Of a stretch of 64,000 bases of DNA, positions 7,305 to 62,491 are shown piece by piece (position 1 is the first letter of the stretch; each line of letters starts with the position of its first letter). The translations under genes and the position numbers were made by a program. The DNA comes from an uncultured Candidatus Saccharibacteria bacterium (lineage in GTDB: Bacteria; Patescibacteriota; Minisyncoccia; Phycocordibacterales; CAIJYI01). The stretch covers positions 38,341 to 102,340 of the forward strand of contig CAYPFT010000001.1 in the NCBI GenBank assembly GCA_964410165.1, read 5' to 3'. The notes under the pieces are model-generated. The model had not been told where the DNA came from. It worked only from the letters and a program-made list of their open reading frames with translations, and searched no databases.

Positions 7305-8653
7305 TGAACAAAACAAGATTTGACAAACGCATTGTTTTCGCAGGTGCGTGTCGTACCGCCGGTGCCAGCGTTCTTACCGGCATTGGCGGTGGCGGATTTT
7401 GGAGTAACAGCGCGCATGAACTCATGACGACTTGTGTACTTGAAACTCTGCGCCGCACCAATGTTCCGATCGGGGATGTTGACGGCGTTGTAATGGGAAC
7501 TTGCATGCATGACCCGCGCGTGCTCAATGTCGGGCGCATTGTTGCTGTACTTGCGGGACTTCCCGAAGAAATTCGCGAATCGTTTTTCCTCGGCGAGTAC
7601 CTGAGCGTGGAAACCGTATCAAACAGGTCGCTTGCATCGCATGTGGTTGGCGATACGGTGAGTTTCAACTGCGGTTCGGGACTTGTTTCAATCATTAACG
7701 CCGTTCGTCGCCTTCTTTTGGGAGAAGGAAAGGCATACATTGCCGGTGGTGGAGAAAGCATGTCGCATGCTCCGCTTCAAATACCGCGGACGGCAAAAGG
7801 TGAAAAGCCGTACAGCCAGCGGGACTTTGTCGTCAAGAACGGGGAAAATCACGACCTCTTTGTCGCGATGGAAAACGGCGTGACGGTTACGGACGCATTG
7901 CTTCACGGTTTACGCGATCCATTTACCGGATTGCATTACGGAGCGACGGCGGATCTCGCCGCGGTAAAGTATGGCATCACACGTCGGGAACAAGACAAAG
8001 CGGCGGTGATTTCCCACTCTCGCGCGCGGAAAGCTCGCGATGCCGGGTACTTTGCTCCGCAGATTGTTCCCATACGGACTCGCGATGCGGAAGCGCGGAT
8101 AATTGATTTGGACGAAGGAATTCGGACCGACCTTACCGAAGGAGTCCTCGCTTCCCTCAAACCGTACTTCACCACGGACGGCACGGTAACGGCGGCGACG
8201 AGCGCTCTCGTTTCCGACGGTGCGGCGAGCATGCTTGTCATGACGCTTGAAGAAGCGCTTCATAGCGGCATCGCTCCGGACGCTGAAATCCTTGACTATG
8301 AGTTCGTGGCGGGCGACCCATCGTATATGGGCGTTGTCCCCATTCTTGCCATTCAGAAAATTTACGAACGGTGGGGATTTGGCAAAGATACCGAGAATCT
8401 CATGCATATCAATAATGCCGCTTTTGAAGCAACCAACTTGTCCGTCCAAAAGCTCGCAGAAGTTCCGAAGAATCGTTGGAATTGGTGGGGGGATGCTATC
8501 TCCGGCTTCGGTCATGCGGTGGGCGGAAGCGGCGCGATGCGCACGGTAGAGGGAGCGTACATGCTCAAATTCCTTCCGGAATACGACTACGTACTCGTTT
8601 CTTTCTGCGTCGGCGGCGGACAGGCGGTTGCACTGCTTATCGGGCGCGTCTAG
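7305..8653 (+). CDS. Thiolase (acetyl-CoA C-acetyl/acyltransferase)
   Basis: N-terminal nucleophile motif SFNCGSGL. C-terminal GFGHAVGGSGAM and CVGGGQAV thiolase signatures. Start at MNKTRFDKR with AGAAAGAGGTA upstream. Confidence 0.8.
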
Positions 8654-8788
8654 TACAAAAATGCTTTGCAACAGAGCAGGCGAGACCCAAACTCTTGACT
8701 GTCTTTCAACAACAGAGAAAGGTGAAAAAAGATGAAATTAAAACAGAAAGCAGGGATCTTTGTCAATCAACAAATAAAGAGGCACATT

Positions 8789-17334: not shown

Positions 17335-18036
17335 TCAATCTTGACGCCGTATCGGCGCGTGGCGGACAATATCCGTTATCTTCTCCACGTCGTCTGATAT
17401 GACGTAGAGCTTGCGGTCGTCTTTGTTGATCGCCTTGTGTTTTTTGTAGAGCTGTTGTTCTATGAATTTATCAAGCGCATTCCAATAATCGCTCCCCATG
17501 AGGATTATGGGAACTTGTTCAATCTTTCCCGTCTGGACGAGCGTGAGAATCTCGAAAAATTCATCAAGGGTTCCGAAGCCGCCGGGGAAGAAGATATACG
17601 CTTCGGCCGCGTAGGCAAGGAGAACTTTTCGCACGAAGAAGTAGTCGAATGTCATGCTTTCCGTCAGATAAGGATTTTCACTCTGTTCATGATTGAGCTT
17701 GATGTTGAGTCCGAGAGAAAACCCTTTTGCTTCATGCGCGCCGCGGTTGCCGGCTTCCATGATGCCCGGACCGCCGCCGGTAACGACGCCGATGCCGTAT
17801 TTTGAAAGCCCCGCCGCAAGCTTCCGCGCCGTTTTGTAATGCGCGTCCTTTTCCGTAAACCGCGCCGAGCCGAAGAACGTAACGGTTTTTTCAAGTCCTT
17901 GAATAAAATTAAAACCGTCTTTGAATTCGTTCGCGATACGCTCCACGCGCTCATTCACGATTTTTCCAAACTCTTTTTTTGAGAGCGTGGGAGGAATGGA
18001 AGGGGAAGTTTTTTGCGGAATTATTTTTTTTGCCAT
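17335..18036 (-). CDS. LOG family protein (TIGR00730, lysine-decarboxylase-like / cytokinin riboside 5'-monophosphate phosphoribohydrolase fold)
   Basis: VTGGGPGIMEAGNRGA and PGGFGTLDEFFE motifs. Confidence 0.8.
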   Translation of the reverse strand: MAKKIIPQKTSPSIPPTLSKKEFGKIVNERVERIANEFKDGFNFIQGLEKTVTFFGSARFTEKDAHYKTARKLAAGLSKYGIGVVTGGGPGIMEAGNRGAHEAKGFSLGLNIKLNHEQSENPYLTESMTFDYFFVRKVLLAYAAEAYIFFPGGFGTLDEFFEILTLVQTGKIEQVPIILMGSDYWNALDKFIEQQLYKKHKAINKDDRKLYVISDDVEKITDIVRHAPIRRQD

Positions 18037-18045
18037 GATTTTTTG

Positions 18046-18303
18046 TTAAAAATACAATTCGCTGTGTGTGCCGATTATATAAAAAGTAACGCCATCCTCT
18101 GATTCCTCGAAAATAGCACGATAATCCCCGGTAACATTTAAGCTTCGGCAGTTTGGAAATGTTTTATCCACCGAATGGTTGTTCAACACGACGTCGAATT
18201 TGTTCGCGATAAAAACCTCAAGTCTATCATAAAATTGTTCCTTGATTTTTGGCGGAAGTTTTTTGAACGCCTTTCCAAACCGTCTCTTATATTTGATTTC
18301 CAT
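18046..18303 (-). CDS. RelE/ParE-family type II toxin
   Basis: 85 aa, basic N-terminus, C-terminal GDYRAIFEESEDGVTFYIIGTHSELY typical of RelE/YoeB-like mRNA interferases. Sits immediately downstream of a small acidic ORF. Confidence 0.55.
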   Translation of the reverse strand: MEIKYKRRFGKAFKKLPPKIKEQFYDRLEVFIANKFDVVLNNHSVDKTFPNCRSLNVTGDYRAIFEESEDGVTFYIIGTHSELYF

Positions 18304-18306
18304 GAA

Positions 18307-18561
18307 TTACAGGCGTTTAAGATAGGCAATAGCATCTTTCGCGTTATTAAATCCCGGGGATATATTTTTACCTTCTTTGCTTTCTTGCAATTCGCGTGCA
18401 AGTATTTTTTTTGTGCGAGGATTCAGTTCCTCATGAACAACAAGCTCGACATTGAGTCGGTCATTCACAAAAGCGTCGGCGGCGAAATTAAGCATGGAAG
18501 AAAAAGTGATACCCTTCTCCCGCGCCTTTTTCATTGCCGCCTTTTTAAGCTTCGGCTCCAT
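18307..18561 (-). CDS. Putative antitoxin paired with the RelE-like toxin (RelB/DinJ-like)
   Basis: Small ORF (MEPKLKKAAMKKAREKGITFSSMLNFAADAFV...) ending 3 nt before the toxin start. Start uncertain. Confidence 0.4.
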   Translation of the reverse strand: MEPKLKKAAMKKAREKGITFSSMLNFAADAFVNDRLNVELVVHEELNPRTKKILARELQESKEGKNISPGFNNAKDAIAYLKRL

Positions 18562-18623
18562 TTTAAACATGAATTGAGTAGTCATAATGGAAGTATATAT
18601 ATTTTATATATACTTTGTCAAAT

Positions 18624-18670
18624 TATTCAAAATGCGCCACGCCGTCTTTTCTCGCGATTTTTTGCGCAAT
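18624..18670 (-). pseudogene. Duplicated remnant of the recG 3' end (encodes ...AQKIARKDGVAHFE*)
   Basis: 44 of 47 bp resemble recG 19581-19627 (tcaaaatgcgccRcRccRtctttYYtcgcgattttttgcgc), stop codon included. Confidence 0.6.
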
Positions 18671-18671
18671 T

Positions 18672-18700
18672 TGCAAATTTTCATATTTTGAGTACAATAA
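18672..18700 (+). promoter_or_regulatory. Promoter of the MazF-like cassette (TTGCAA-N16-TACAAT), start codon 7 nt downstream
   Basis: ttgcaaattttcatattttgagtacaat aaaaac ATG. Confidence 0.45.
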
Positions 18701-18704
18701 AAAC

Positions 18705-18845
18705 ATGAAAACCCTCAAGAAAACTAAATTTTCCGCTAAAAATATTCAAAAAAAATCTTCGGGTAAGACTATGACGGAGTCTAAGTTTTGGCAACAAGTT
18801 GCTTTACAACAGCAATCAATTCTTCATGCAAAACACCGCACATAA
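18705..18845 (+). CDS. Small ORF upstream of and overlapping the MazF-like gene (possible antitoxin)
   Basis: 46 aa, MKTLKKTKFSAKNIQKKSSGKTMTESKFWQQVALQQQSILHAKHRT. Overlaps the toxin start by 20 nt, which is a typical type II arrangement. No recognisable fold. Confidence 0.25.
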   Translation: MKTLKKTKFSAKNIQKKSSGKTMTESKFWQQVALQQQSILHAKHRT

Positions 18846-19173
18846 AAAAATACAGAAAGGGGATGTGTGGATTGTGGAGAACGCGAATGCGGTTGGTCAT
18901 ATCCAAAACGGGATACGCCCGCACGTTGTCGTCACTCAAGTGACGGGGGAGACCGTCACGGTTGCTCCGTGTACTTCGCAAAAGAAGCTCCATCGGAAAT
19001 ATATGGTGGAAATAGTTCCGTCGTCGGATAACGGACTTAACGCGACCTCTTTTGTTCTTCTCGCCCAATCTTTTGCGGCGGATGTGAGCTTGTTGCAGAA
19101 AAAAATAGGGCGCTTAAACCAAAACGAAATGATCCGCATTCAGCTTGAGTATGTAAAATATGTTACGGATTAG
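18826..19173 (+). CDS. PemK/MazF-family toxin (mRNA interferase)
   Basis: GDVWIVENANAVGHIQNGIRPHVVVTQ ... VTVAPCTS ... SFVLLAQSFAADVSLLQKKIGRLNQNEMIRI matches the MazF/PemK pattern (GDIxxVxxxxxxGxExxxxRPxxVxS...VxPxTS). Confidence 0.7.
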   Translation: MQNTAHKKIQKGDVWIVENANAVGHIQNGIRPHVVVTQVTGETVTVAPCTSQKKLHRKYMVEIVPSSDNGLNATSFVLLAQSFAADVSLLQKKIGRLNQNEMIRIQLEYVKYVTD

Positions 19174-19249
19174 GGTTTCGGTTTTGCCTTAAACTAAAAA
19201 TCCCGCCGTTCGCTTTCGCGATTGGCGGGGAGATAGCATCGAGACCTTA

Positions 19250-19504
19250 TCAGGGGCTCTTATTTTTTGCATTTTTCAGGCTGAACCTCTGGACTTTACG
19301 CAACTCTCTATGTGTACGTACTACTAAAATTCCCGTCAGAGCAACCATTAAAAGAGCAGGGCTTACGATAACTGTTTTCTTGATCACAATATAGTAGAGA
19401 AATGTCCCCATAGGAACAATAATCATGATTATTCCAAACAGTAAAATAAACCAAGGGAACCATAGCAGTACATCCCTTTTAAATTTTTTCCAATTCGTTT
19501 TCAT
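19250..19504 (-). CDS. Small membrane protein (two TM helices), hypothetical
   Basis: 84 aa with a hydrophobic core, LLWFPWFILLFGIIMIIVPMGTFLYYIVI and ALLMVALTGILVV. Confidence 0.35.
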   Translation of the reverse strand: MKTNWKKFKRDVLLWFPWFILLFGIIMIIVPMGTFLYYIVIKKTVIVSPALLMVALTGILVVRTHRELRKVQRFSLKNAKNKSP

Positions 19505-19580
19505 TTCACACCTCGTTTTGCGAAAAAAAAAGGGGGGACTTCCTCTAAAAACTTATCATAGAATTGTAGACCGCGCAATT

Positions 19581-21737
19581 TTACTCAAAATGCGCCGCAC
19601 CATCTTTCTTCGCGATTTTTTGCGCGAGCATGGGGTGTTTTTTCAAGTCTGGGTCTTTGGCAAGCATTTCTCGCGCTTCGGTCCTCGCGGCTTCCACCAT
19701 TTTTATATTCTTAATCGCTTCCATGCCGAGGTCGGAGATGCCCCACTGTTTCTTGCCGGAGAGTTCGCCGGCGCCGCGGAGGGCGAGGTCGAGTTCGGAA
19801 AGTTCGAAGCCGTTTTTGGCGGTCTTCAAGGCTTTCAACCGCTCGGCGGTTTTTGGGGAGAAGCTGTCGGTGAGGAGATAGCAGTATGCCTGGGTCTCGC
19901 TTCGAATGACGCGCCCGCGGAGTTGATGAAGCTGTGAGAGTCCGAAACGCTCGGCGCCTTCGATGGCGATAACCGTCGCGTTCGGGACATTCACGCCGAC
20001 TTCCACCACGGACGTGGCGCAGAGGATGTGGATTTCATTTTTTTCAAATTGTTCCATGATGCTCTCTTTTTCTTTCGGCGTCATTTTTCCGTGCAGTACG
20101 CCGATTTCATAATTTTGAAACACATTTTTCTTGAGCCGCTTCGCTTCTTCTTTGACGGACTTCGCATTCAGGGCAAGTTCTTTTTCCGGATCCGGTTCGT
20201 CGATGCGTGGGCAAATGACGTACGCTTGCCTTCCTTTTTCAAGCTCGCGTTTCATTTCGCCGTACATTTTCTCGCGTTTTGACGCGAGCACGATTTCCGT
20301 GATGATCGGTTTTCTTCCCGGAGGCATCGCATCAAGCAGGGTAAGGTCGAGGTCGCCGTAAATGGTGAGCGCGAGCGTGCGCGGAATCGGCGTTGCGGTC
20401 ATGGAAAGGAAGTGCGGAGCAACAGCGCCTTTTTTCACGAGTTTCATTCTTTGGGTGGTGCCGAAGCGGTGCTGTTCGTCAATGATGACGAGCGCGAGGT
20501 TTTTGAATTTCACCGATTTTTGGATGAGCGCGTGCGTGCCGAAGAGAATGTCCACTTCGCCTCCCGCGACCCATTTCAAAAGTTGCGGGCGGGAGATTTT
20601 CGTCCATTCGTCGGGCGAGACTTTGGATGGAAATTTTTTACAGCCGGAACCGGTGATAAGCCCTACCGTCACGGGAAGGTGGGAAAAATATTTAATGAAA
20701 GATTCAAAGTGCTGATTGGCGAGAATTTCCGTCGGCGCCATGTAGGCGGTTTGGAGTTTCTCAAAATCACCCTGTGCGTGTTCTTGCGTGAGCGTGTAGG
20801 CTACCGCGGCGGCAACGAACGTTTTTCCAGAACCGACATCACCCTCAAGAAGCCGGAGCATCGGTTTCCCCGAAGCCATGTCTTTCTGCACATCTTCTAT
20901 GGCGCGGTTTTGCGCTTCGGTCGGCGTGAAAGGGAAGCGTGAAATAAATTCTTCCACGTCGTCTTTGTTCGGACGAATAATAAACGATTTATTTTTCTCA
21001 AATTCCACCCTCGCCATTTGGCGGACGAGCTGAATGAAAAATATTTCTTCAAAAGCGAAACGCTTCCGCGCCGCCTCCGCATGGTCTTTTTCTTTCGGCG
21101 CGTGAATCCACACGAGCGCGGTTTTGAGAGAGGGGAGATGATATTTTTGCGTAATCTCTTCCGGTATCGGGTCAGCGATATTTTCGAGTACACCTCCTTT
21201 GATGGCTTTTTGAATGGCGTGATAGAACCACTTGCTCGTAATTCCGCGCGTTTCGGGGTACACGGGGTATGAGAACGCGTCCAGAGCATCCGTATCCCTG
21301 AAAAGCGAGTTGCCCGCATCAATCGGCATATCCTTCGTTTTCTCAATTTCTGGATTATTGAGGTAGAGCGTTCCTTTCCGCTCTGCGAGAGCCCCTGAGA
21401 GCTTCACCAAGTCGCCCTCGGCAAACATTTTGGCGATATACGGCTGGCGGAACCACACCGCCTTCAAATGCCCCGTACGGTCTTCCACAGACGCCTCCGC
21501 GAATGTCATTTTAGACTTAAACCCCTTGGCGGTTTTGAGCCCCGATATCTTCCCATAAATCACCGCCTTTTCACCCAAAACAAGCTCCGATATATTTTTC
21601 ACCTCTGAAATGGTGCTGTATCGCGAAGGGAAGTAGTAAATAAGGTCGCCAAGCGTGCGCAAATTAAGCCTTTCCAACGCCTGTCGTTGCGTCGGCTGGA
21701 GGCGAAAAGTTTCTTCAATAGAAGAGTCGAGCTTCAT
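19581..21737 (-). CDS. recG: ATP-dependent DNA helicase RecG
   Basis: Wedge domain, helicase motifs (GDVGSGKT, DEQHRFG, TATPIPRT) and the C-terminal RecG region. Start chosen at MKLDSS (21737); the longer ORF reaches 21794. Confidence 0.85.
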   Translation of the reverse strand: MKLDSSIEETFRLQPTQRQALERLNLRTLGDLIYYFPSRYSTISEVKNISELVLGEKAVIYGKISGLKTAKGFKSKMTFAEASVEDRTGHLKAVWFRQPYIAKMFAEGDLVKLSGALAERKGTLYLNNPEIEKTKDMPIDAGNSLFRDTDALDAFSYPVYPETRGITSKWFYHAIQKAIKGGVLENIADPIPEEITQKYHLPSLKTALVWIHAPKEKDHAEAARKRFAFEEIFFIQLVRQMARVEFEKNKSFIIRPNKDDVEEFISRFPFTPTEAQNRAIEDVQKDMASGKPMLRLLEGDVGSGKTFVAAAVAYTLTQEHAQGDFEKLQTAYMAPTEILANQHFESFIKYFSHLPVTVGLITGSGCKKFPSKVSPDEWTKISRPQLLKWVAGGEVDILFGTHALIQKSVKFKNLALVIIDEQHRFGTTQRMKLVKKGAVAPHFLSMTATPIPRTLALTIYGDLDLTLLDAMPPGRKPIITEIVLASKREKMYGEMKRELEKGRQAYVICPRIDEPDPEKELALNAKSVKEEAKRLKKNVFQNYEIGVLHGKMTPKEKESIMEQFEKNEIHILCATSVVEVGVNVPNATVIAIEGAERFGLSQLHQLRGRVIRSETQAYCYLLTDSFSPKTAERLKALKTAKNGFELSELDLALRGAGELSGKKQWGISDLGMEAIKNIKMVEAARTEAREMLAKDPDLKKHPMLAQKIAKKDGAAHFE

Positions 21738-21826
21738 AAGGCTAGCATAGCAGACGGGCAGGGTACTTGACAAGAAAATTAAAGTATGATACACATAAAG
21801 ATGGATGAGTAATTTTTAGGAGAAAC

Positions 21827-33307: not shown

Positions 33308-33535
33308 TAGGACTTACGCACTGTTGCGACAGCGTACGGTTTCGGCGAGGAATTTTGGTCGGTTTCTCCGCCTCTTGGCGGTGGAACCGCCAAAATTCAG
33401 CGCTGAAATCGAAGATTTGGCGGAGAGACCGCCAAAAGGGCGCGACCTGATTTTCTTGAGCGAAGCGATTAGAAAATGGAAGTACCCGTGTGGCAGACTC
33501 ACCGACCAAATCTTTCCCCAGTGCGTAAGTCCTAT
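33308..33535 (-). mobile_element. Family-1 MITE, copy C (~228 bp, inverted relative to copies A and B), ending 9 nt before the tatD start
   Basis: taggacttacgcactgttgcgacagcgtacggtttcggcgaggaattttggtcggtttctcc ... gactcaccgaccaaatctttccccagtgcgtaagtcctat. Confidence 0.7.
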
Positions 33536-33543
33536 TGAATATC

Positions 33544-34365
33544 ATGAACCCTCCTCTTTATTTTGACGCTCACTCCCACATAAACGACCCTCGTTTTGAT
33601 ACCGACATCGGCGAAGTCCTTTCTCGCATGAAAGAATCGGGAGTGTGGTCGCTTGTGGTGGGGACGGAAAAAAATCTCTCATCGCGTGCGGTAGAGCTTG
33701 CGAACGAACATGATGGCATTTTCGCCTCCGTCGGACTCCATCCGACGGATGACGCGCATGAGCAATTTGATGAAGCCTTTTACCGGACGCTTGCCGAAGA
33801 TCCGGAAACTGTTGCGATAGGCGAGTGCGGACTGGATTATTTCCGTCTCGGCGAAGAAGAGAGAAAAAAAGAAGAAGCAAAGCAGAAAACCGTGTTTGAA
33901 AAACAGCTTGAGCTTGCCGTTTCACTCGATAAACCGCTGATGATCCATTGCCGCAACGCCCATCAAGACATGCTCGGTATCCTCGGCTCAAAGAAGAAAG
34001 AACACGGCGAAAAACTCCGCGGAAACATCCACTTTTTTTCGGAAGGTCCGGAAACCGCAAAAAAGTATTTTGACCTTGATTTCACGATCTCATTCACGGG
34101 TGTTATCACCTTCGCGAGAGAGTATGATGAAACCATCCGCTACGCTCCACTTGACCTCATCCTCTCCGAAACCGATTGCCCGTATGTTGCCCCGGCTCCG
34201 TATCGCGGCAAACGCAATGAACCCGCTTATGTTGTTGAGGTGGTCAAAAAGATTACTGAGATCCGCGGCGAAGATTTCGAAACCGTCCGCGAGCAGTTGG
34301 TCAAAAATGCCCTGCGGGTGTTCGGGATTCGCGAAACAAAATTTGACAAGAATACTAGTATGTGA
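33544..34365 (+). CDS. tatD: TatD-family metal-dependent hydrolase (DNase)
   Basis: FDAHSHIN...GLHP...GECGLDY...HCR...FSG TatD motifs. Confidence 0.85.
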   Translation: MNPPLYFDAHSHINDPRFDTDIGEVLSRMKESGVWSLVVGTEKNLSSRAVELANEHDGIFASVGLHPTDDAHEQFDEAFYRTLAEDPETVAIGECGLDYFRLGEEERKKEEAKQKTVFEKQLELAVSLDKPLMIHCRNAHQDMLGILGSKKKEHGEKLRGNIHFFSEGPETAKKYFDLDFTISFTGVITFAREYDETIRYAPLDLILSETDCPYVAPAPYRGKRNEPAYVVEVVKKITEIRGEDFETVREQLVKNALRVFGIRETKFDKNTSM

Positions 34366-34400
34366 TAAGCTGAAAACCGGATAAGGATGCTTGAAAACAC
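34343..34400 (+). promoter_or_regulatory. Promoter-leader module 1 (TTGACA-N17-TAAGCT plus conserved leader gaaaaccggataaggatgcttgaaaaca)
   Basis: Near-identical module at 35302-35360. Overlaps the tatD 3' end. Confidence 0.5.
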
Positions 34401-34544: not shown

Positions 34545-35075
34545 ATGAAAACAGACACAACCTTAAAAATTGACGAAGAGAAATTTCGGGAAGTATGCGG
34601 ATTAAAATCGTCGCTTAAAGAAACTTTTGCGCAAATGATTGCGGCAGGCACCATGATAGTCCACCCTGGTGTCAAAGTAAACCGCAACCGTAGTCCAGAA
34701 GAAGCAATCGGCGCTACGGGTCGGAAACAACACGTCCTCTCCGACAGTGCACTCGCAACCATGCCGCGAGGACAAGGCGAAGTCGTTGACCTCTACTATA
34801 TGAAGAGGGAGGGCTTTACGAGCGATAACAAATGGGAACAATATCTCAAAGAGCTCAGGCTCGCTCCCGACCCGTACGCCCAAGCCGCAGATAACGAAGC
34901 CAACCCATGTTTTGCCGATGAGCACCCTAACGGCACTCATTGGAAAAACAGCGAAGGCGAGTGGTATCTTGTCTCCTTCAACCGTTGGCACGGTGAGCGC
35001 GGTGTGCTTGTTCGCCGGAGCGATCTCGACTGGCTTGACGACTTGTGGTTCGGCGGGCGTGAGTTAGATCTTTAA
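34545..35075 (+). CDS. Hypothetical protein
   Basis: 176-aa ORF with AGGAGAG RBS. Followed by a strong terminator. Confidence 0.45.
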   Translation: MKTDTTLKIDEEKFREVCGLKSSLKETFAQMIAAGTMIVHPGVKVNRNRSPEEAIGATGRKQHVLSDSALATMPRGQGEVVDLYYMKREGFTSDNKWEQYLKELRLAPDPYAQAADNEANPCFADEHPNGTHWKNSEGEWYLVSFNRWHGERGVLVRRSDLDWLDDLWFGGRELDL

Positions 35076-35147: not shown

Positions 35148-35301
35148 GTGTACACTGAGGAGGTAACCGGTCGCGGGTTTGCAACCCAGACCGTAATGTT
35201 TGAAATTACATTCTGCGGTAAATTTAAACATTCCGACTGGGTTACCAACCTCGTCGGGCGACGACACGGGTAAGTGGTGCGAGTACGGGCGAGCAGAAAT
35301 T

Positions 35302-35360
35302 TTGACAAACATGCCGCTATGTGCTAAGTTAAAAACCGGATAAGGACTCTTAAAACAGCA
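35302..35360 (+). promoter_or_regulatory. Promoter-leader module 2 (TTGACA-N17-TAAGTT plus conserved leader aaaaaccggataaggactcttaaaaca)
   Basis: Paralogous to 34343-34400. Confidence 0.5.
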
Positions 35361-35397: not shown

Positions 35398-36000
35398 GTG
35401 ATGAAACAAAAATTGAAGATTGCGGAACTTCACAACGATTACTACGTCCAAAGGCATGGTGAAAGCACTGCGAATATACGTCGGATTATCGTGTCTGACC
35501 CACAACGTGGAAAACGGAAAGAATTTGGACTGACGACATTTGGAAAATCCCATGCAAGAGGTATCGCAGGGGAAAATGAATGCGCCCTCGGACCGGACAC
35601 CGTAATAATAACCTCCCCTTTCTCTCGTGCCAAGGATACCGCCAAAATAACGGCGGATGTCCTCGGCGTACAAAAGATAATCGTGTCGTGGCGGTTGAAG
35701 GAAAGATACTTCGGGTGTTATGAAGGGACAACCAACGCCAATTATCAAAAAGTATGGGACGATGATAAAAAAAATCCAAACCACAGAAATCATGGAGGAG
35801 AATCAGTGAATGATGTTTTGAGGCGAGTGCGGGTTCTTATCACCAAGCTCGAGAATAATTACACGGGCAAAAAAATTTTGTTCGTAACCCATGGAGACAC
35901 CGGGCAGATTACGACGTGTTTTTTCCAACACATCGCCCCCCGTCATCACCGAAAATTGGAGCATCTTAAAACAGGAGAAATACGAAAACTTTCTCGGTGA
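35398..36000 (+). CDS. Histidine phosphatase family protein (phosphoglycerate-mutase-like)
   Basis: RHGESTAN catalytic motif near the N-terminus, and a C-terminal H (VTHGD). Confidence 0.7.
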   Translation: MMKQKLKIAELHNDYYVQRHGESTANIRRIIVSDPQRGKRKEFGLTTFGKSHARGIAGENECALGPDTVIITSPFSRAKDTAKITADVLGVQKIIVSWRLKERYFGCYEGTTNANYQKVWDDDKKNPNHRNHGGESVNDVLRRVRVLITKLENNYTGKKILFVTHGDTGQITTCFFQHIAPRHHRKLEHLKTGEIRKLSR

Positions 36001-37047: not shown

Positions 37048-37065
37048 CCGTCTTTCGTCCCCGGT

Positions 37066-37093
37066 ACTTATACTAATCCCTTATACTTAACAT
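37066..37093 (+). promoter_or_regulatory. 28-nt motif acttatactaatcccttatacttaacat immediately 5' of the rpsC ATG (identical copy before fusA)
   Basis: Exact 28/28 identity with 41205-41232. Contains two TATACT hexamers; the second ends 6 nt before the ATG. Confidence 0.5.
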
Positions 37094-37777
37094 ATGTCTC
37101 ACACCGTTCATCCATATTCACACCGCCTCGGCATATTGCGAGATTGGAAATCGCGCTGGTTTGCGGCACCGGGAAAATATCAAGAATTTTTGAGAGCGGA
37201 CGTGCTTTTGCGGGAATATTTGGAAAAACGCCTCCGCGGATGCTCGGTGAGTTCCATTGACATCGAGAGAAACCAAAATACTTTGAAGATACTCATTAAA
37301 ACGGCACGTCCGGGAATGATCATCGGCCGAAGCGGCGAAGGGGCGGCAAAGCTCAGGAACGACATTTTTACGTTTGCCAAAAGACGCAAAATCGCGATTT
37401 CCGAGAATCTGAAGGTTGATATTGAAGAAGTCCGGTTTCCCGAAGCCGATGCCGTTATTGTGGGAGAAATGGTTGCGGAAGGTCTGGAAAAACGCATGCC
37501 ATTTCGCCGCGTCCTGAAGCAGACCATTGAAAAAGTTATGGCGAATCGCGATGTGCAAGGAGCGAAAATCGCTATTTCCGGGAGGCTCGGCGGTGCCGAT
37601 ATGAGTCGCGCCGAGCAGATTAAAAAAGGAAACATTCCCCTGCAGACATTCCGCGCGGATATTGATTTCGCCCGCGAGAGAGCTTATCTCCCGTACGGCG
37701 TCATCGGCGTCAAGGTGTGGATTTATAAAGGTGAAGTCTTTGCAGACAAGCCGAAAACGGCAACATCAAGAAATTAA
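37094..37777 (+). CDS. rpsC: 30S ribosomal protein S3
   Basis: KH domain and S3 C-terminal domain. Confidence 0.9.
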   Translation: MSHTVHPYSHRLGILRDWKSRWFAAPGKYQEFLRADVLLREYLEKRLRGCSVSSIDIERNQNTLKILIKTARPGMIIGRSGEGAAKLRNDIFTFAKRRKIAISENLKVDIEEVRFPEADAVIVGEMVAEGLEKRMPFRRVLKQTIEKVMANRDVQGAKIAISGRLGGADMSRAEQIKKGNIPLQTFRADIDFARERAYLPYGVIGVKVWIYKGEVFADKPKTATSRN

Positions 37778-38279: not shown

Positions 38280-38405
38280 ATAGGACTTACGCACTTGGAT
38301 GAGATTCGAGGCGAAACAAGGGTTTTTACGGAGATGTACTAACAGTACATTGACGGGAAAACCCGATGTTTCAACGACGAAGATCGCCAAATGCGTAAGT
38401 CCTAT
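38280..38405. mobile_element. Family-1 MITE, copy D (126-bp minimal copy) between rplP and rpmC inside the ribosomal operon
   Basis: ataggacttacgcac ... gtgcgtaagtcctat termini identical to the other copies; the internal sequence is unrelated. Confidence 0.65.
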
Positions 38406-40930: not shown

Positions 40931-41204
40931 TTTCTTCTCCTAAAAATTGTGATTGAATTTAGTATGTACCGCTGAAAACAGTTTATCACAATACAACACA
41001 TTTGTCAACTCTTTCCACGTCACCAAAAATAGGGTAAGATAAATACATCTTTTAATGACCGCTACCGGGTCTTTTTATTTAGACAAGCGAGGAAGGAATA
41101 GGAGCTTGCTCATATTCCAGCCGAGTGCCGTCTAAATATGAGAATTTATTGCTCATATTTAATAAACGATGAGTAGAGAAAAAAGGGCGTTCGTTTTCCC
41201 TTAT

Positions 41205-41232
41205 ACTTATACTAATCCCTTATACTTAACAT
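41205..41232 (+). promoter_or_regulatory. Second copy of the 28-nt motif acttatactaatcccttatacttaacat, 1 nt before the fusA ATG
   Basis: Exact copy of 37066-37093. Confidence 0.5.
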
Positions 41233-41233
41233 T

Positions 41234-43381
<2,148 letters not shown>

Positions 43382-51379: not shown

Positions 51380-51860
51380 AAACGGATATGCCAGTAAAAA
51401 CAAAAACCGACTGATGCCGGTTTTTGCGCCAAACTTGGTGGAGATGGGGGATCGGTCACAAGTATTTTTTCTGACAAAAAATCTTGCGACCCCGGCTCGC
51501 GGTTTTTGCCTTGTGCTTCGCACAAACAAAAACATCGCTGCGCCTTTCAATCCCCCCACGTGAGCAAAGCAGTTTGCTCACTCATCTCCACAACTCAAAA
51601 CAACAAACCGCCCTAAATCGGGCGGGTTGTTTTGGCTGTGGAGATGGGGGGAATCGGTCACAGATAAATTTTTGTTGCTACAAAAATTTTCCGCGACCCC
51701 ACCTCGGCTGTTTTGTCGCTTGCGAGCGATAAAACATGCCTGCGGTTTTCGATTCCCCACGGAAGCCAAGCAGTTGGCTTCCTCCATCTCCACCGAATTT
51801 TGGCAAAACAAAAACCGACTGATGCCGGTTTTTGCGCCAAAATTGGTGGAAACTAATGAA
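51380..51860. repeat. Array of degenerate repeats derived from the ssrA 3' end (old att remnants) plus 45-bp direct repeats
   Basis: tggagatggggg(g)a(a)tcggtcaca occurs at 51438 and 51643. Inverted ...catctccac... occurs at 51585 and 51784. ~110-bp diverged repeats lie at 51484-51595 and 51690-51800. The 45-bp direct repeat aaaacaaaaaccgactgatgccggtttttgcgccaaaNttggtgga lies at 51393 and 51804. Confidence 0.6.
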
Positions 51861-56000: not shown

Positions 56001-56343
56001 ATTTTTTATACTACAAGGGTTGTTTTATATTTGCAAGGGCGTAACGTATTTATGTAGGGTAGCTTATACATGAGTAAAAGTAAAGTCAAGAAAGCAGAAA
56101 GTGGAATTTTACTTTCAGGGGGGAAGGTAATACCATGTAAATACAACTGAATATCGTGCTCGAAAGAGCTAGGACCTAAACCAGTAGATTTGTCTCTGGC
56201 ATGGTCTCAAATCGTTGAGGATAGAAAACCCGTCATTCAGGGCGTCCTCAACGTTATAGGGGGAAACTCCTATAGGGCCGCAAGGCCTCCTGGTGGCGGG
56301 TTTTGTGTATCCCACCAGGAATTATCAATTAACAAAATTAGAT

Positions 56344-60508: not shown

Positions 60509-62200
60509 ATGGAAACAAAAACAAAACTTAGATATGTAGCGTATGCTCGTAAGTCGACTGACCAGGAAGAAAAACAAATCACTTCCATTGAAGATCAGTT
60601 GCGGGAAATTGAGCGGATAGGTGCTGATTGTCACATTACAAAGAAACTCACGGAAAAACGGACTGCTAAAACTCTGGGTCGTCCTGTTTTTGCTGAAATG
60701 TTGCAGTTGATTCTGGATAAGAAAGTAGACGGGATTGTTTGCTGGAAGCTGAATCGGTTAGCAAGAAATCCAATAGATGGAGGGCAGATAATCTGGATGT
60801 TGCAAAATGGGGTTATCAAAGAAATCAGGACTGATGATGGTATCTACACTCCAGAGAGTGACATGATAATGCTTCACATCCACTTCGGGATGGCTCATCA
60901 GTTCAGTTTGAATCTCAGTAAGGACATCAAGAGAGGTTTACAGGGTCGTCTTCGTGAGGGAGTTCGTCCAAGTATTGCTCCTATCGGGTACATAAACAGT
61001 CAGTATCACATCAAGAGGATGGAAGAAATCTTGGTTGATGAGGAGCGGTTCCCAAAAGTAAGAAAGTTATTCGATTTAATGCTTTCTGGACAATACTCTC
61101 CTCTCCAGTTGGTTGAGATTGCGGATAAGCAACTCCATCTGGAAACAAGGGGGACGAAGAAATGGCCGAGAAAAGCGATGAGTAAGTCAAATATGTATCG
61201 GGTTCTCACCAATCCTTTCTACTATGGGTCGTTCGAGTTTCCGGAGGGTAGCGGTGATTGGCATGTTGGTAAACATAAACCAATGATTACGGAAGAGGAG
61301 TATGACAAAATCCAATCTCTCCTTGGTCGTGAGGGTAGACCGAGACCGAAGACTCACATCTTTGCTTACACTGGATTGATGCGGTGTGCAGGTTGCCAGG
61401 CTCGCGTGACTGCTGAAGAAAAATGGAAACACCAACAGAATGGGAATAGTCACCATTACATCTACTATCGGTGTACGGGTAGTCAGGGTCCAGAGTGTTT
61501 GGAGAAGTCGGTTGAGGTGAAAGTTCTGGAAAAGCAAATTGATGAATTTCTCTCTAAGATTCAGATTCCACCAGAGTTCCATGAATGGGCTGTTGAGGAG
61601 TTGAAGAAACTCCATGAAAGAGAAAAGGGTGATAGGAACTCGCTGATTGTGAAGCATGAGCAGGACTATAAGGACTGTGTATTCAAGCTGGATCAGTTGA
61701 TGGAGCTTCGATTGGAGGGCAAGGTTTCGGATGAGATGTTCTCTCGGAAGGAATCACAACTCTTGAAGCAGAAAGCAGAATTGAAGAGATTGTCTGATGG
61801 AGATGATAAGAGAGTAGATGACTGGTTGGTTCGTCTTGAAAGCACTCTCACCTTTGCGGAGAGAGCCAGAGAGGAATTCCAAAAGGGTGATATTGCGAAG
61901 CGGAGGCAGATTCTTACTGCTTTGGGGACTGAGCATATCCTCAAAGACCGGGCAATCCACATCAATACGGAAAAACCACTCCTTGTACTTCAAGAAGTGG
62001 TTTCCGAGAGCAATCGTCTGTTAGATAAGTTAGAACCTCCCAAAAGTGTTGGAAACAATGGGCGGATTAAACAAATCTATGACAAAAGTTCATCAATGTG
62101 GAGATGGGGGGAATCGAACCCCCGTGCAAAAAGGAATTCTCGCTCCTTCTACAAACATAGATTATTTGTTTTTGGTTTAAGTGGAAAAAGTAAGGAATAA
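60509..62200 (+). CDS. Large serine recombinase (resolvase/invertase-type N-terminal domain plus recombinase and zinc-ribbon domains)
   Basis: YVAYARKSTDQEEKQITSIEDQ catalytic-serine motif. The recombinase domain (RPSIAPIGY) and CxxC...C zinc ribbon (RCAGCQA...YYRCTG...C) are both present. The 3' end reads through the ssrA terminus. Confidence 0.85.
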   Translation: METKTKLRYVAYARKSTDQEEKQITSIEDQLREIERIGADCHITKKLTEKRTAKTLGRPVFAEMLQLILDKKVDGIVCWKLNRLARNPIDGGQIIWMLQNGVIKEIRTDDGIYTPESDMIMLHIHFGMAHQFSLNLSKDIKRGLQGRLREGVRPSIAPIGYINSQYHIKRMEEILVDEERFPKVRKLFDLMLSGQYSPLQLVEIADKQLHLETRGTKKWPRKAMSKSNMYRVLTNPFYYGSFEFPEGSGDWHVGKHKPMITEEEYDKIQSLLGREGRPRPKTHIFAYTGLMRCAGCQARVTAEEKWKHQQNGNSHHYIYYRCTGSQGPECLEKSVEVKVLEKQIDEFLSKIQIPPEFHEWAVEELKKLHEREKGDRNSLIVKHEQDYKDCVFKLDQLMELRLEGKVSDEMFSRKESQLLKQKAELKRLSDGDDKRVDDWLVRLESTLTFAERAREEFQKGDIAKRRQILTALGTEHILKDRAIHINTEKPLLVLQEVVSESNRLLDKLEPPKSVGNNGRIKQIYDKSSSMWRWGESNPRAKRNSRSFYKHRLFVFGLSGKSKE

Positions 62201-62491
62201 TCAAAATCTTTCTCCACCCTAGCTTCTTTGTTTTGAAAATAAATCGAAGCGGTTTATATTTTCTATCCCGATTTGTATTACACCCGTATCCCACCCTCGG
62301 GAGAGGAGAGATAAAGACGCCGGTTTACGCTAAAGCGAATCCGGGATGAAAAGCAAAGTATGGTGATACAACGCTTTTCACCTTAGAAGAAAGTTTTGCA
62401 ACTATCAGTTTCCTGTGCGCTATAACGGGTGAACAGGAGTATCCGGTTTGCAAAGCGAGAAGACGACTTCTTGTCGAAGCCAGTCATCCCC
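62098..62491 (-). ncRNA. ssrA: tmRNA (SsrA)
   Basis: 5' end GGGGAUGACUGGCUUCGAC matches the tmRNA consensus. Acceptor pairing GGGGAUG/CAUCUCC carries G3:U70. T-arm GGGGGUUCGAUUCCCCC. Resume context GAUAGUU-GCA followed by a 24-codon tag ending FALA-UAA. Confidence 0.75.

Follow-up and report, generated by a model that had tools for sequence, protein, structure and literature searches.

What placed a small toxin-antitoxin (TA) block behind recG, and why does the end of this gene occur twice on the same strand? The question is raised by a stretch of 64,000 nt (positions 38,341 to 102,340 of contig CAYPFT010000001.1, assembly GCA_964410165.1; hereafter the window, meaning the stretch at its full length) from an uncultured Candidatus Saccharibacteria bacterium, whose RecG relatives are Patescibacteria of the class Paceibacteria, represented by Nomurabacteria-like metagenome-assembled genomes (MAGs). 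The two recG ends enclose a gene for a small membrane protein and a mazEF-like TA pair, and a relBE-like pair lies just outside. An original prediction, made from the letters of the window and its open reading frames (ORFs), had attributed this arrangement to a decayed integrative element. We consider, with a probability of about one half, that the repeat is instead the scar of a homology-anchored capture of a cassette at the 3' boundary of recG.

The repeat measures 45 nt and was located by repeat search at 18623-18667 and 19581-19625, with 39 of 45 positions identical (87%), no gaps and a spacing of 958 nt; no longer repeat was found across 17-22 kb. The copy at 19581-19625 (minus strand) is the genuine terminus of recG, stop codon included, as alignment with relatives also indicates, and it reads ...AQKIAKKDGAAHFE. 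The copy at 18623-18667 (minus strand), which reads AQKIARKDGVAHFE, is an orphan recG tail, a non-coding remnant. This is the same feature that had first been described as a 44-bp duplication with five mismatches (18627-18670 and 19585-19627), a description that is off by about 4 nt and by one mismatch. The elements predicted between the copies (a promoter, a small ORF, a MazF/PemK-like toxin and a membrane-protein gene) were all confirmed, and the RelE/RelB-like pair is indeed present outside the repeat at 18046-18585, both of its matches lying under the Pfam gathering score. A chance match is ruled out by the self-comparison of the whole window, in which blastn aligns the orphan with the true tail at E = 8.7e-8, and by the 15-mer GCSCATTTTGARTAR, which occurs exactly twice against 0.10 expected occurrences, a count of two being reached in 0 of 100 shuffles. 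Moreover, two Logan contigs (runs SRR4343428 and SRR4343430) cover 17765-19752 at 99.9-100% identity; since these contigs from separate runs both span the two copies, the arrangement is not a mis-assembly.

The loci of relatives, taken in at up to 80 per collection and consisting, like all sequences compared here, of MAG or metagenome contigs, include two close counterparts of the window, named L001 and L085. In L001 (RecG 92% identical at the amino acid level), recG is followed by a different cassette of 328 bp, by the relBE promoter, relB (96%), relE (92%) and a gene of the LOG family; the 328-bp cassette holds a promoter-like copy, an ORF of 59 aa and the hairpin of the window at 94% identity. 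In L085 (RecG 93%), the relB promoter comes first after recG, then a divergent relB-like gene with a hairpin behind it, then an orphan of 18 nt (GVAHFE*) and the LOG gene; the relB cassette of this genome is itself bounded by an orphan tail adjoining LOG. The block composed of the membrane gene and mazEF is missing from both loci and is therefore an insertion relative to them. The comparison with relatives lacking the insertion, which the original prediction had called for, consequently agrees with an insertion of about 0.9 kb at the recG 3' end: both L001 and L085 keep recG, a relB-type cassette (with the additional 328 bp in L001) and LOG. Look-ups of the exact MazF, membrane and RelB proteins returned solely two filled-site contigs and no polymorphic empty site in the population.

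The two copies in the window differ at six sites, distributed over the three codon positions as [0,2,4] (p about 0.1), and in the alignment with relatives all six orphan-specific bases are present in the functional recG tails of L001 or L085. Because of this distribution, and because the orphan states are found in functional tails, the differences look allelic and not like decay. The functional recG terminus of the window would then be the imported one and the orphan the resident one, which is in keeping with the replacement terminus suggested earlier.

The duplication is not confined to the window. Among about 155 Paceibacteria loci, 8 have orphan recG tails, at a distance of 0.4-3.7 kb from recG on its downstream side. 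A search with the last 16 nt of recG, allowing at most two mismatches, gave nine same-strand downstream matches in these eight loci (the window, L003, L059, L063 with two, L085, L086, L132 and L149); on the opposite strand there were no downstream matches, and upstream there were five, each with two mismatches. The orphans are 17-151 nt long and each matches the tail of its own genome, for example at 31 of 31 positions in L086 and 22 of 22 in L132. In all eight loci the stop codon is the limit of the similarity, and it is the 5' edge that varies. The 12-nt sequence CATTTTGARTAR, which encodes HFE*, forms the end of recG in 106 of the 164 loci and, among all orphans, is the smallest common part; this core is the conserved coding end of the gene, and the extent of each repeat follows the local tail. 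A self-comparison of 161 loci (1.6 Mb) yielded 64 local direct-repeat pairs; by hand count, 13 loci contribute 17 pairs with an anchor no more than about 100 nt from the recG stop, that is, in about 2.7% of the sequence. The search for other elements at the recG 3' end that had been proposed with the original prediction was thus productive for orphans, in eight loci, in which a crude motif screen and Pfam scans of most inserted ORFs returned no recombinase.

The cargo flanked by orphans is small (0.4-3.7 kb) and consists mostly of TA modules. Besides MazEF with the membrane gene in the window, it includes a DUF6364/YafQ-like pair with an ORF of 115 aa in L003, HicAB in L086 and L063, a YafQ/ribbon-helix-helix (RHH) pair in L132 and the relB-like gene of L085. 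L059 and L149 carry a PaaX-like winged helix-turn-helix protein with a Cas2-like domain, and L063 additionally carries a major-vault/SPFH-like protein of 837 aa.

Some loci hold more than one block, and others show the same site with different occupants. The order in L063 is recG, the major-vault-like gene, an orphan of 50 nt identical to the true tail, HicAB and an orphan of 151 nt (91%), which by its layout appears to record two successive captures, the newer adjoining recG. In L003 two blocks are separated by an orphan of 25 nt, 96% identical to the tail. L004, whose recG is 86% identical at the nucleotide level, is the empty site of L003: its recG tail matches the L003 orphan, and the sequence downstream resumes past the second L003 block. 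A recent tandem duplication in L003 is ruled out, as the proteins of the two blocks are 26-39% identical. Cargo exchange is seen between L005 and L132 (recG 79% identical at the nucleotide level), whose homology runs as far as the stop codon and resumes at the orphan (82% over 2.2 kb); in between, L005 has a PaaX-like gene and L132 the YafQ/RHH pair. Blocks also occur at the site without any orphan. In L186 the block of the window (73% identity for the membrane protein and 84% for MazF, with the same hairpin and promoter) stands straight after the recG stop; it is followed by GCG and TTTGACA, and the corresponding position of the window reads GCG, the rest of the orphan and TTTGACA. In the same way, the TA cassette of L132 follows the recG stop in L090. 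L186 and L090 are donor-type arrangements, with the cassette beside its anchor and no duplication.

The mazEF genes of the block have a distribution of their own. The 155 MazF homologues at 60-85% identity come essentially all from Patescibacteria-type sources, and the MazF of the window was not found on IMG/VR phage contigs. Upstream of the toxin, in nine of nine contexts, stands a lysine-rich ORF of 40-51 aa (93 aa in L166), which overlaps the toxin start and has the conserved C-terminus FWQQ[VI]ALQQQxxLHAK; from its position and conservation, the 46-aa ORF of the window is the likely antitoxin of MazF. This ORF has no Pfam family at E <= 0.1, and so no match to MazE/PemI/AbrB or RHH. The conserved DNA unit, about 0.53 kb in all, has the -35 element at one end and at the other reaches about 20 nt beyond the stop of the toxin gene; a retro-copy origin is ruled out, as the unit includes both -35 and -10 elements. 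Its ends are consistent between genomes and its neighbours are wholly different from one genome to another, which suggests that the unit is itself mobile. In four of eight independent contexts mazEF stands between two copies of a local sequence of 37-65 nt. In the window the duplicated stretch comes from the recG tail (45 nt), in L165 it is a terminator (37 nt, perfect), in L166 it covers 65 nt and begins with the start codon of the gene downstream, and in L175 it takes in at least 57 nt from the 5' region of a LamG-like gene, where an orphan N-terminal ORF is left. No such flanking repeat surrounds mazEF in L167, L170, L180 or L182.

How could such an arrangement arise? The slot after the recG stop in Paceibacteria is variable and filled by small self-contained cassettes with their own promoter, often with a terminator, many of them type II TA modules. 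The recombination route that we infer starts from DNA of a related cell, consisting of a recG tail followed by the membrane gene, the terminator and mazEF. Homology in the conserved recG sequence would let this DNA recombine with the chromosome of the recipient, and its other end would be joined at a point about 45 nt before the stop codon of the resident gene, through either a single crossover of a circularised fragment or one-sided homology combined with a microhomology (illegitimate) joint. As a consequence, recG would now end in the imported tail and the resident tail would be stranded as an orphan beside the older relBE cassette. The duplication would span the sequence from a variable joint to the end of the homology between donor and recipient. 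Since this homology does not extend into the cassettes, similarity would stop at the stop codon; a candidate for the microhomology is the GCG that the joint has in common with L186. Repeated captures would build arrays with the newest block next to recG. The expected empty-site junction would read ...CTC, GCGCAAAAAATCGCGAGAAAAGACGGCGTGGCGCATTTTGAATAA and TTTGACAAAG, in this order, joined directly to the recG body, and the expected circle junction would be ...TTTGCAAATT joined to the recG tail and then AATTGCGCGGTC. The prevalence of TA cargo would follow as well, because loss of a block through recombination between tails would trigger post-segregational killing; TA modules would in this way stabilise repeat-flanked, deletion-prone blocks. 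Both routes have precedents: in Escherichia coli, a circular molecule with a shortened piece of homology, integrating by a single crossover, leaves a variable length (109-950 bp) of that piece in two copies, and joints of homology-facilitated illegitimate recombination (HFIR) carry 3-10 bp of microhomology (PMC3240628). In all eight loci the duplicated segment is the recG tail with one edge at the stop codon, as a single crossover or HFIR would leave it.

Several facts weigh against capture through homology, and part of them are better explained by a de novo duplication of the target, in which some mechanism acting in trans would insert cassettes and duplicate 17-150 nt of the resident sequence, one cut falling preferentially past the recG stop; a transposase-like or Cas1-like integrase, or the repair of widely staggered nicks or of hairpin-induced breaks, are candidate agents. 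Several repeats, of 17-31 nt, fall below the length of an efficient RecA substrate. These short repeats and the perfect ones (31/31 in L086, 50/50 for the first orphan of L063, 37/37 in L165, and also the repeat of L132) fit a duplication made in place better than a diverged donor, and the differences of the second L063 orphan are spread evenly over codon positions ([5,5,5]), as in neutral decay of an in-place copy. If both flanks were shared, clean double crossovers should be far commoner, yet four of eight mazEF contexts are duplicated. Neither donor nor circular form nor same-population polymorphic empty site was observed; the recG genes of the window, L001 and L085 are roughly equidistant (84-87% nucleotide identity), and a scan for mosaic divergence that would mark an imported 3' segment gave no clear breakpoint; the allele argument rests on six sites, and the GCG common to L186 and the window amounts to 3 nt only. 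Target duplication would also account for the consistent ends of the mazEF unit in different genomes and for the unrelated local sequences duplicated around it in L165 (37 nt), L166 (65 nt) and L175 (at least 57 nt), and long variable duplications of 8-514 bp are documented for the insertion sequences (IS) IS1549 and IS1634 (PMC2266710). We nevertheless regard it as unlikely. One edge of each duplication is a gene boundary, the stop in eight of eight recG cases and the start in L166, and an enzyme that duplicates its target would have no cause to heed such boundaries; the same blocks occupy the site without duplication in L186 and L090, the bases that distinguish the window orphan look allelic, and neither a transposase (motif screen) nor terminal inverted repeats or conserved cassette termini (by eye) were seen. 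Inverted repeats were likewise absent from the block ends in the repeat search, so that features of transposons, IS or miniature inverted-repeat transposable elements are lacking there, and the duplications around blocks and mazEF are variable (17-151 nt), not the short ones of fixed length. A bolder proposal, which we hold to be doubtful, is that the recG stop is a true acquisition site resembling an integron without integrase, where promoter-bearing, chiefly TA cassettes are serially captured with 17-150 nt of target duplicated each time; its agent would be an unrecognised enzyme nicking after ...CATTTTGARTAA, or a RecA-driven cycle of excision and integration using the gene tail as attachment site, and the same mechanism would move mazEF to other gene boundaries.

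Site-specific recombination, the explanation closest to the original prediction, could take the form of decayed integrase elements at an att site on the recG stop, or of cassettes with a recG-tail attP mobilised in trans by a Xer-like chromosomal tyrosine recombinase, in the manner of integron cassettes and pdif modules. Direct repeats around an insert with recG intact through its stop, as observed here, are the classic attL/attR signature of integration at a gene 3' end with reconstitution of the gene; the 12-nt core common to all orphans and the tandem arrays with the newest block proximal would fit as well, and integrases that supply a replacement gene end are known, such as those of the dusA family (PMC4482086). 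Such a reading predicts an integrase in some occupants, a fixed att site and no occupancy free of repeats; none of these is borne out by the loci compared, and it is therefore unsupported. In fact, the repeats vary in length and track the tail of each genome, not a consensus carried by an element, and blocks also occur without an orphan. A motif search for tyrosine and serine recombinases found none in the window or in the 161 loci, orphan loci included, although this screen is crude and weak and covers 5-6 kb on either side of recG; a Pfam scan covering the cargo ORFs of the window and the majority of those in the remaining inserts flanked by orphans gave neither integrase nor transposase. 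Eight independent decays to 1 kb or less would be unparsimonious, and the mazEF duplications at sites other than recG share nothing with the recG tail. The possibility that the recG stop contains an att site, dif/Xer-like or structured, was also considered and rejected, as no conserved sequence or dyad follows the stop and the folds are ordinary (z = -0.85 for the tail, and -0.18). Nor were integron features found: there is no recombinase motif, no intI and no attC-like site, the repeated unit is the recG tail and not an imperfect palindrome, and the hairpins between cassettes carry trailing T-runs and look like terminators. Homology-driven capture fits these data better than a lost integrase, which the analysis does not bear out; a recombinase in trans may still be possible, and site-specific recombination as a whole seems to us quite unlikely. 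It is highly improbable that the repeat is a by-product, be it of an old tandem duplication with an overwritten interior, of a chance or low-complexity match, or of MAG mis-assembly. The sequences do derive from MAGs, and the two L003 blocks are alike in architecture (promoter, ORF, terminator, promoter, TA pair), which may hint at an ancient tandem duplication; yet the proteins of these blocks have diverged far more than the orphan between them, relatives without the block exist, and the statistics and the two spanning assemblies given above speak for the window repeat. Mixtures of these processes, or other routes, take the remaining weight.

Known systems share parts of this picture. Islands at tRNA and tmRNA genes integrate at the gene end and bring a replacement end. 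Gene-end islands and prophages such as the islands with dusA-specific integrases (PMC4482086) resemble the recG slot in their insertion within terminal codons, reconstitution of the gene, flanking repeats and tandem accretion with partial ends. They differ from it in that the slot has no integrase that we could find, its inserts are of 0.4-3.7 kb, its repeats are copies of the gene's own tail (17-151 nt) and its cassettes also occur without repeats. Campbell-type single crossovers and HFIR (PMC3240628) share with the slot a variable duplication bounded by the end of homology, the possible GCG microhomology and the lack of a dedicated recombinase; these are laboratory crosses, whereas at the slot the process would be a natural one, repeated at the boundary of one gene throughout a class. 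Moreover, several of the repeats are shorter than RecA uses efficiently, and no circular intermediate was observed. Chromosomal super-integrons hold serial arrays of small cassettes at a fixed point, the newest being proximal, with frequent TA modules that are thought to be stabilising. The recG arrays are similar in their serial cassettes of one or two genes, newest proximal and rich in TA, but they lack both IntI and attC-like sites, every cassette brings its own promoter, and the repeat is the tail of the neighbouring gene. The pdif modules of Acinetobacter are small, often TA pairs, located between short repeated sites and devoid of their own recombinase; unlike these and other Xer elements, the recG slot has no 28-bp XerC/XerD-type site (11-6-11 dyad) at the stop, and its repeats differ by genome. 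IS1549 and IS1634 produce variable direct repeats of tens to hundreds of bp around the insert (PMC2266710), as in the slot, where in contrast no transposase gene or terminal inverted repeats are found and one repeat edge is always at the gene boundary. As for the mazEF of the window, it is like MazEF/PemIK in its PemK-fold toxin, small overlapping upstream gene, own promoter and scattered distribution, consistent with horizontal mobility, and unlike them in its partner of 40-51 aa, lysine-rich and without a Pfam match to MazE/PemI/AbrB/RHH.

In the searchable literature we found no description of integration at the recG end, or of long duplications flanking TA cassettes, in Patescibacteria. 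What is new here is the recurrence: the recG stop as a hotspot of integrase-less cassettes with orphan tails across Paceibacteria, and a mazEF unit of 0.5 kb that moves between gene boundaries with long local duplications. The biology of mobile elements is poorly known in Patescibacteria (Candidate Phyla Radiation), whose tiny genomes have few recognisable integrases or transposases and yet a variable gene content. If capture through homology is correct, the recG slot shows how streamlined genomes can gain and shuffle accessory genes without a dedicated recombinase, it explains the dominance of TA modules in such islets, and orphan tails become a signature for mining similar slots. If the duplications stem from an unknown target-duplicating enzyme, they would represent a new insertion mechanism.

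The locus of the window can be described along the minus strand, on which recG is read. The gene (19581-21794) is intact and encodes 737 aa ending in ...KKDGAAHFE*, with the Pfam domains DEAD, Helicase_C, RecG_wedge and RecG_dom3_C and 92-93% amino acid identity to L001 and L085. A leader of 76 nt (19505-19580, minus strand), partly conserved in L186 (TATGATA, -10-like), separates its stop from the ORF of the predicted membrane protein (19250-19504, minus strand; 84 aa), which has no Pfam family above cut-off and whose sole homologue (73%) is in the same block of L186. The GC-rich hairpin CCCGCC-AA-TCGC-GAAA-GCGA-AC-GGCGGG at 19196-19229, with a U-run after it on the minus strand (fold z = -3.8), is the terminator of the membrane gene; it is kept in L186 and is 94% identical by blastn to the one upstream of the relB promoter in L001. 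Convergent to the membrane gene, on the plus strand, lies the toxin of the MazF/PemK family (18826-19173; 115 aa), which matches PF02452 at E 2e-16 with 60.6 bits (cut-off 23.1) over profile positions 2-102 of 109. Its putative cognate antitoxin (18705-18845, plus strand; 46 aa) overlaps mazF by 20 nt, and the promoter-like site of the pair, TTGCAA-16-TACAAT (18671-18698, plus strand), begins 4 nt past the inner edge of the orphan, a position that is conserved. On the other side, one base past the stop of the orphan, starts the relBE promoter-like site TTGACA-18-TATACT (18592-18621, minus strand; 11 of 12 positions), conserved in L001, L085 and L003. The RelB-like antitoxin that follows (18307-18585, minus strand; 92 aa, 96% to L001) has a weak match to PF04221, and the YafQ/RelE-like toxin (18046-18303, minus strand; 85 aa, 92% to L001) matches PF15738 at E 2.8e-4; this pair is the older neighbouring cassette. 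The LOG/lysine-decarboxylase-like gene (17335-18036, minus strand; PF03641, E 1.5e-32), which comes after the cassettes also in L001 and L085, is the conserved neighbour that bounds the variable slot. The GC content is 0.39 over 18-19 kb and about 0.49 in the flanks, and a search of the region against Rfam gave no meaningful match to a known RNA.

In L001, similar promoter-like sequences (TTGACAAA...TATAAAATA) stand on both sides of the cassette with the 59-aa ORF, at 8213-8245, where they abut the recG stop, and at 8542-8575; they represent either a promoter duplication or a cassette with its own near-consensus promoter. The 837-aa cassette protein of L063 (8243-10756, minus strand; Parcubacteria MAG GW2011_GWA1_40_21) has major vault protein shoulder, vault repeat and SPFH/Band 7 domains. 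Ten of the 161 loci (L059 at 8206-8780, L005, L023, L038/L114, L039, L072, L139, L141 and L149) encode, downstream of the recG stop, a PaaX-like protein of 160 aa with a winged helix and a Cas2-like PaaX_M domain (E 1.7e-11); it is absent from the window. Its gene abuts the recG stop in seven loci; in L023 and L038/L114 another gene comes first and the distance is about 0.8-0.9 kb. A palindrome of about 37 nt (TTATCAC..GACGGCCGTC..TGATAA) is found on both sides in eight of these loci; L038/L114 have it three times, with a TauE-like gene within the first interval. The PaaX-like unit could be an autoregulated cassette or be involved in the dynamics of the slot.

Two further contexts of mazEF deserve a description. 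In L175 (2667-3470; also in L176-L178) it lies within the 5' region of a gene for a 695-aa LamG-domain protein; an upstream orphan fragment of 77 aa, the N-terminal part, keeps the original start, and the ATG from which the full-length LamG gene is called falls within the final 14 nt of mazF, an overlap which suggests that this gene may be translationally coupled to mazF. In L182/L183 (2139-2848; Paceibacteria), mazEF is located downstream of a tRNA-like sequence and divergent from a LOG gene, without flanking repeats; the proximity of LOG and mazEF seen in the window recurs there in a different arrangement.

Other repeats and RNAs were observed elsewhere in the window. A second duplication of a gene tail, a direct repeat of 59 nt (78%) at 34338-34396 and 35297-35355, has a spacing of 959 nt, almost as at recG. 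A TatD-like gene (33535-34365) contributes its last nine codons to this repeat, which also takes in a 5' leader and an embedded TTGACA promoter; the repeat flanks an ORF of 176 aa (34545-35075) with no Pfam family, and its second copy precedes a histidine-phosphatase-like gene (35398-36000). A repeat of 36 nt (92%; TCCC..CTTATACTAATCCCTTATACTTAACAT) at 37058-37093 and 41197-41232 stands directly before the ATG of the genes at 37094-37777 and 41234-43381 and is probably a shared leader or promoter. A terminator hairpin of 46 nt is duplicated at 98% identity (51397-51442 and 51805-51850), and the pair encloses two units arranged in tandem (about 51436-51600 and 51634-51805, minus strand), each of about 160 nt and 81% alike. 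On the minus strand these units begin with GTGGAGATG and end with CATCTCCAC(CA), and they have an internal hairpin with compensatory changes between them; ARAGORN called no tRNA in them and Rfam gave no match better than E 0.16, and they may be a pair of unclassified structured RNAs. The GC content is also low over 52-57 kb (about 0.39-0.42). Finally, a LOOT RNA is present at 56173-56288 (plus strand; 72.7 bits, above the gathering score) and the tmRNA at 62096-62491 (minus strand).

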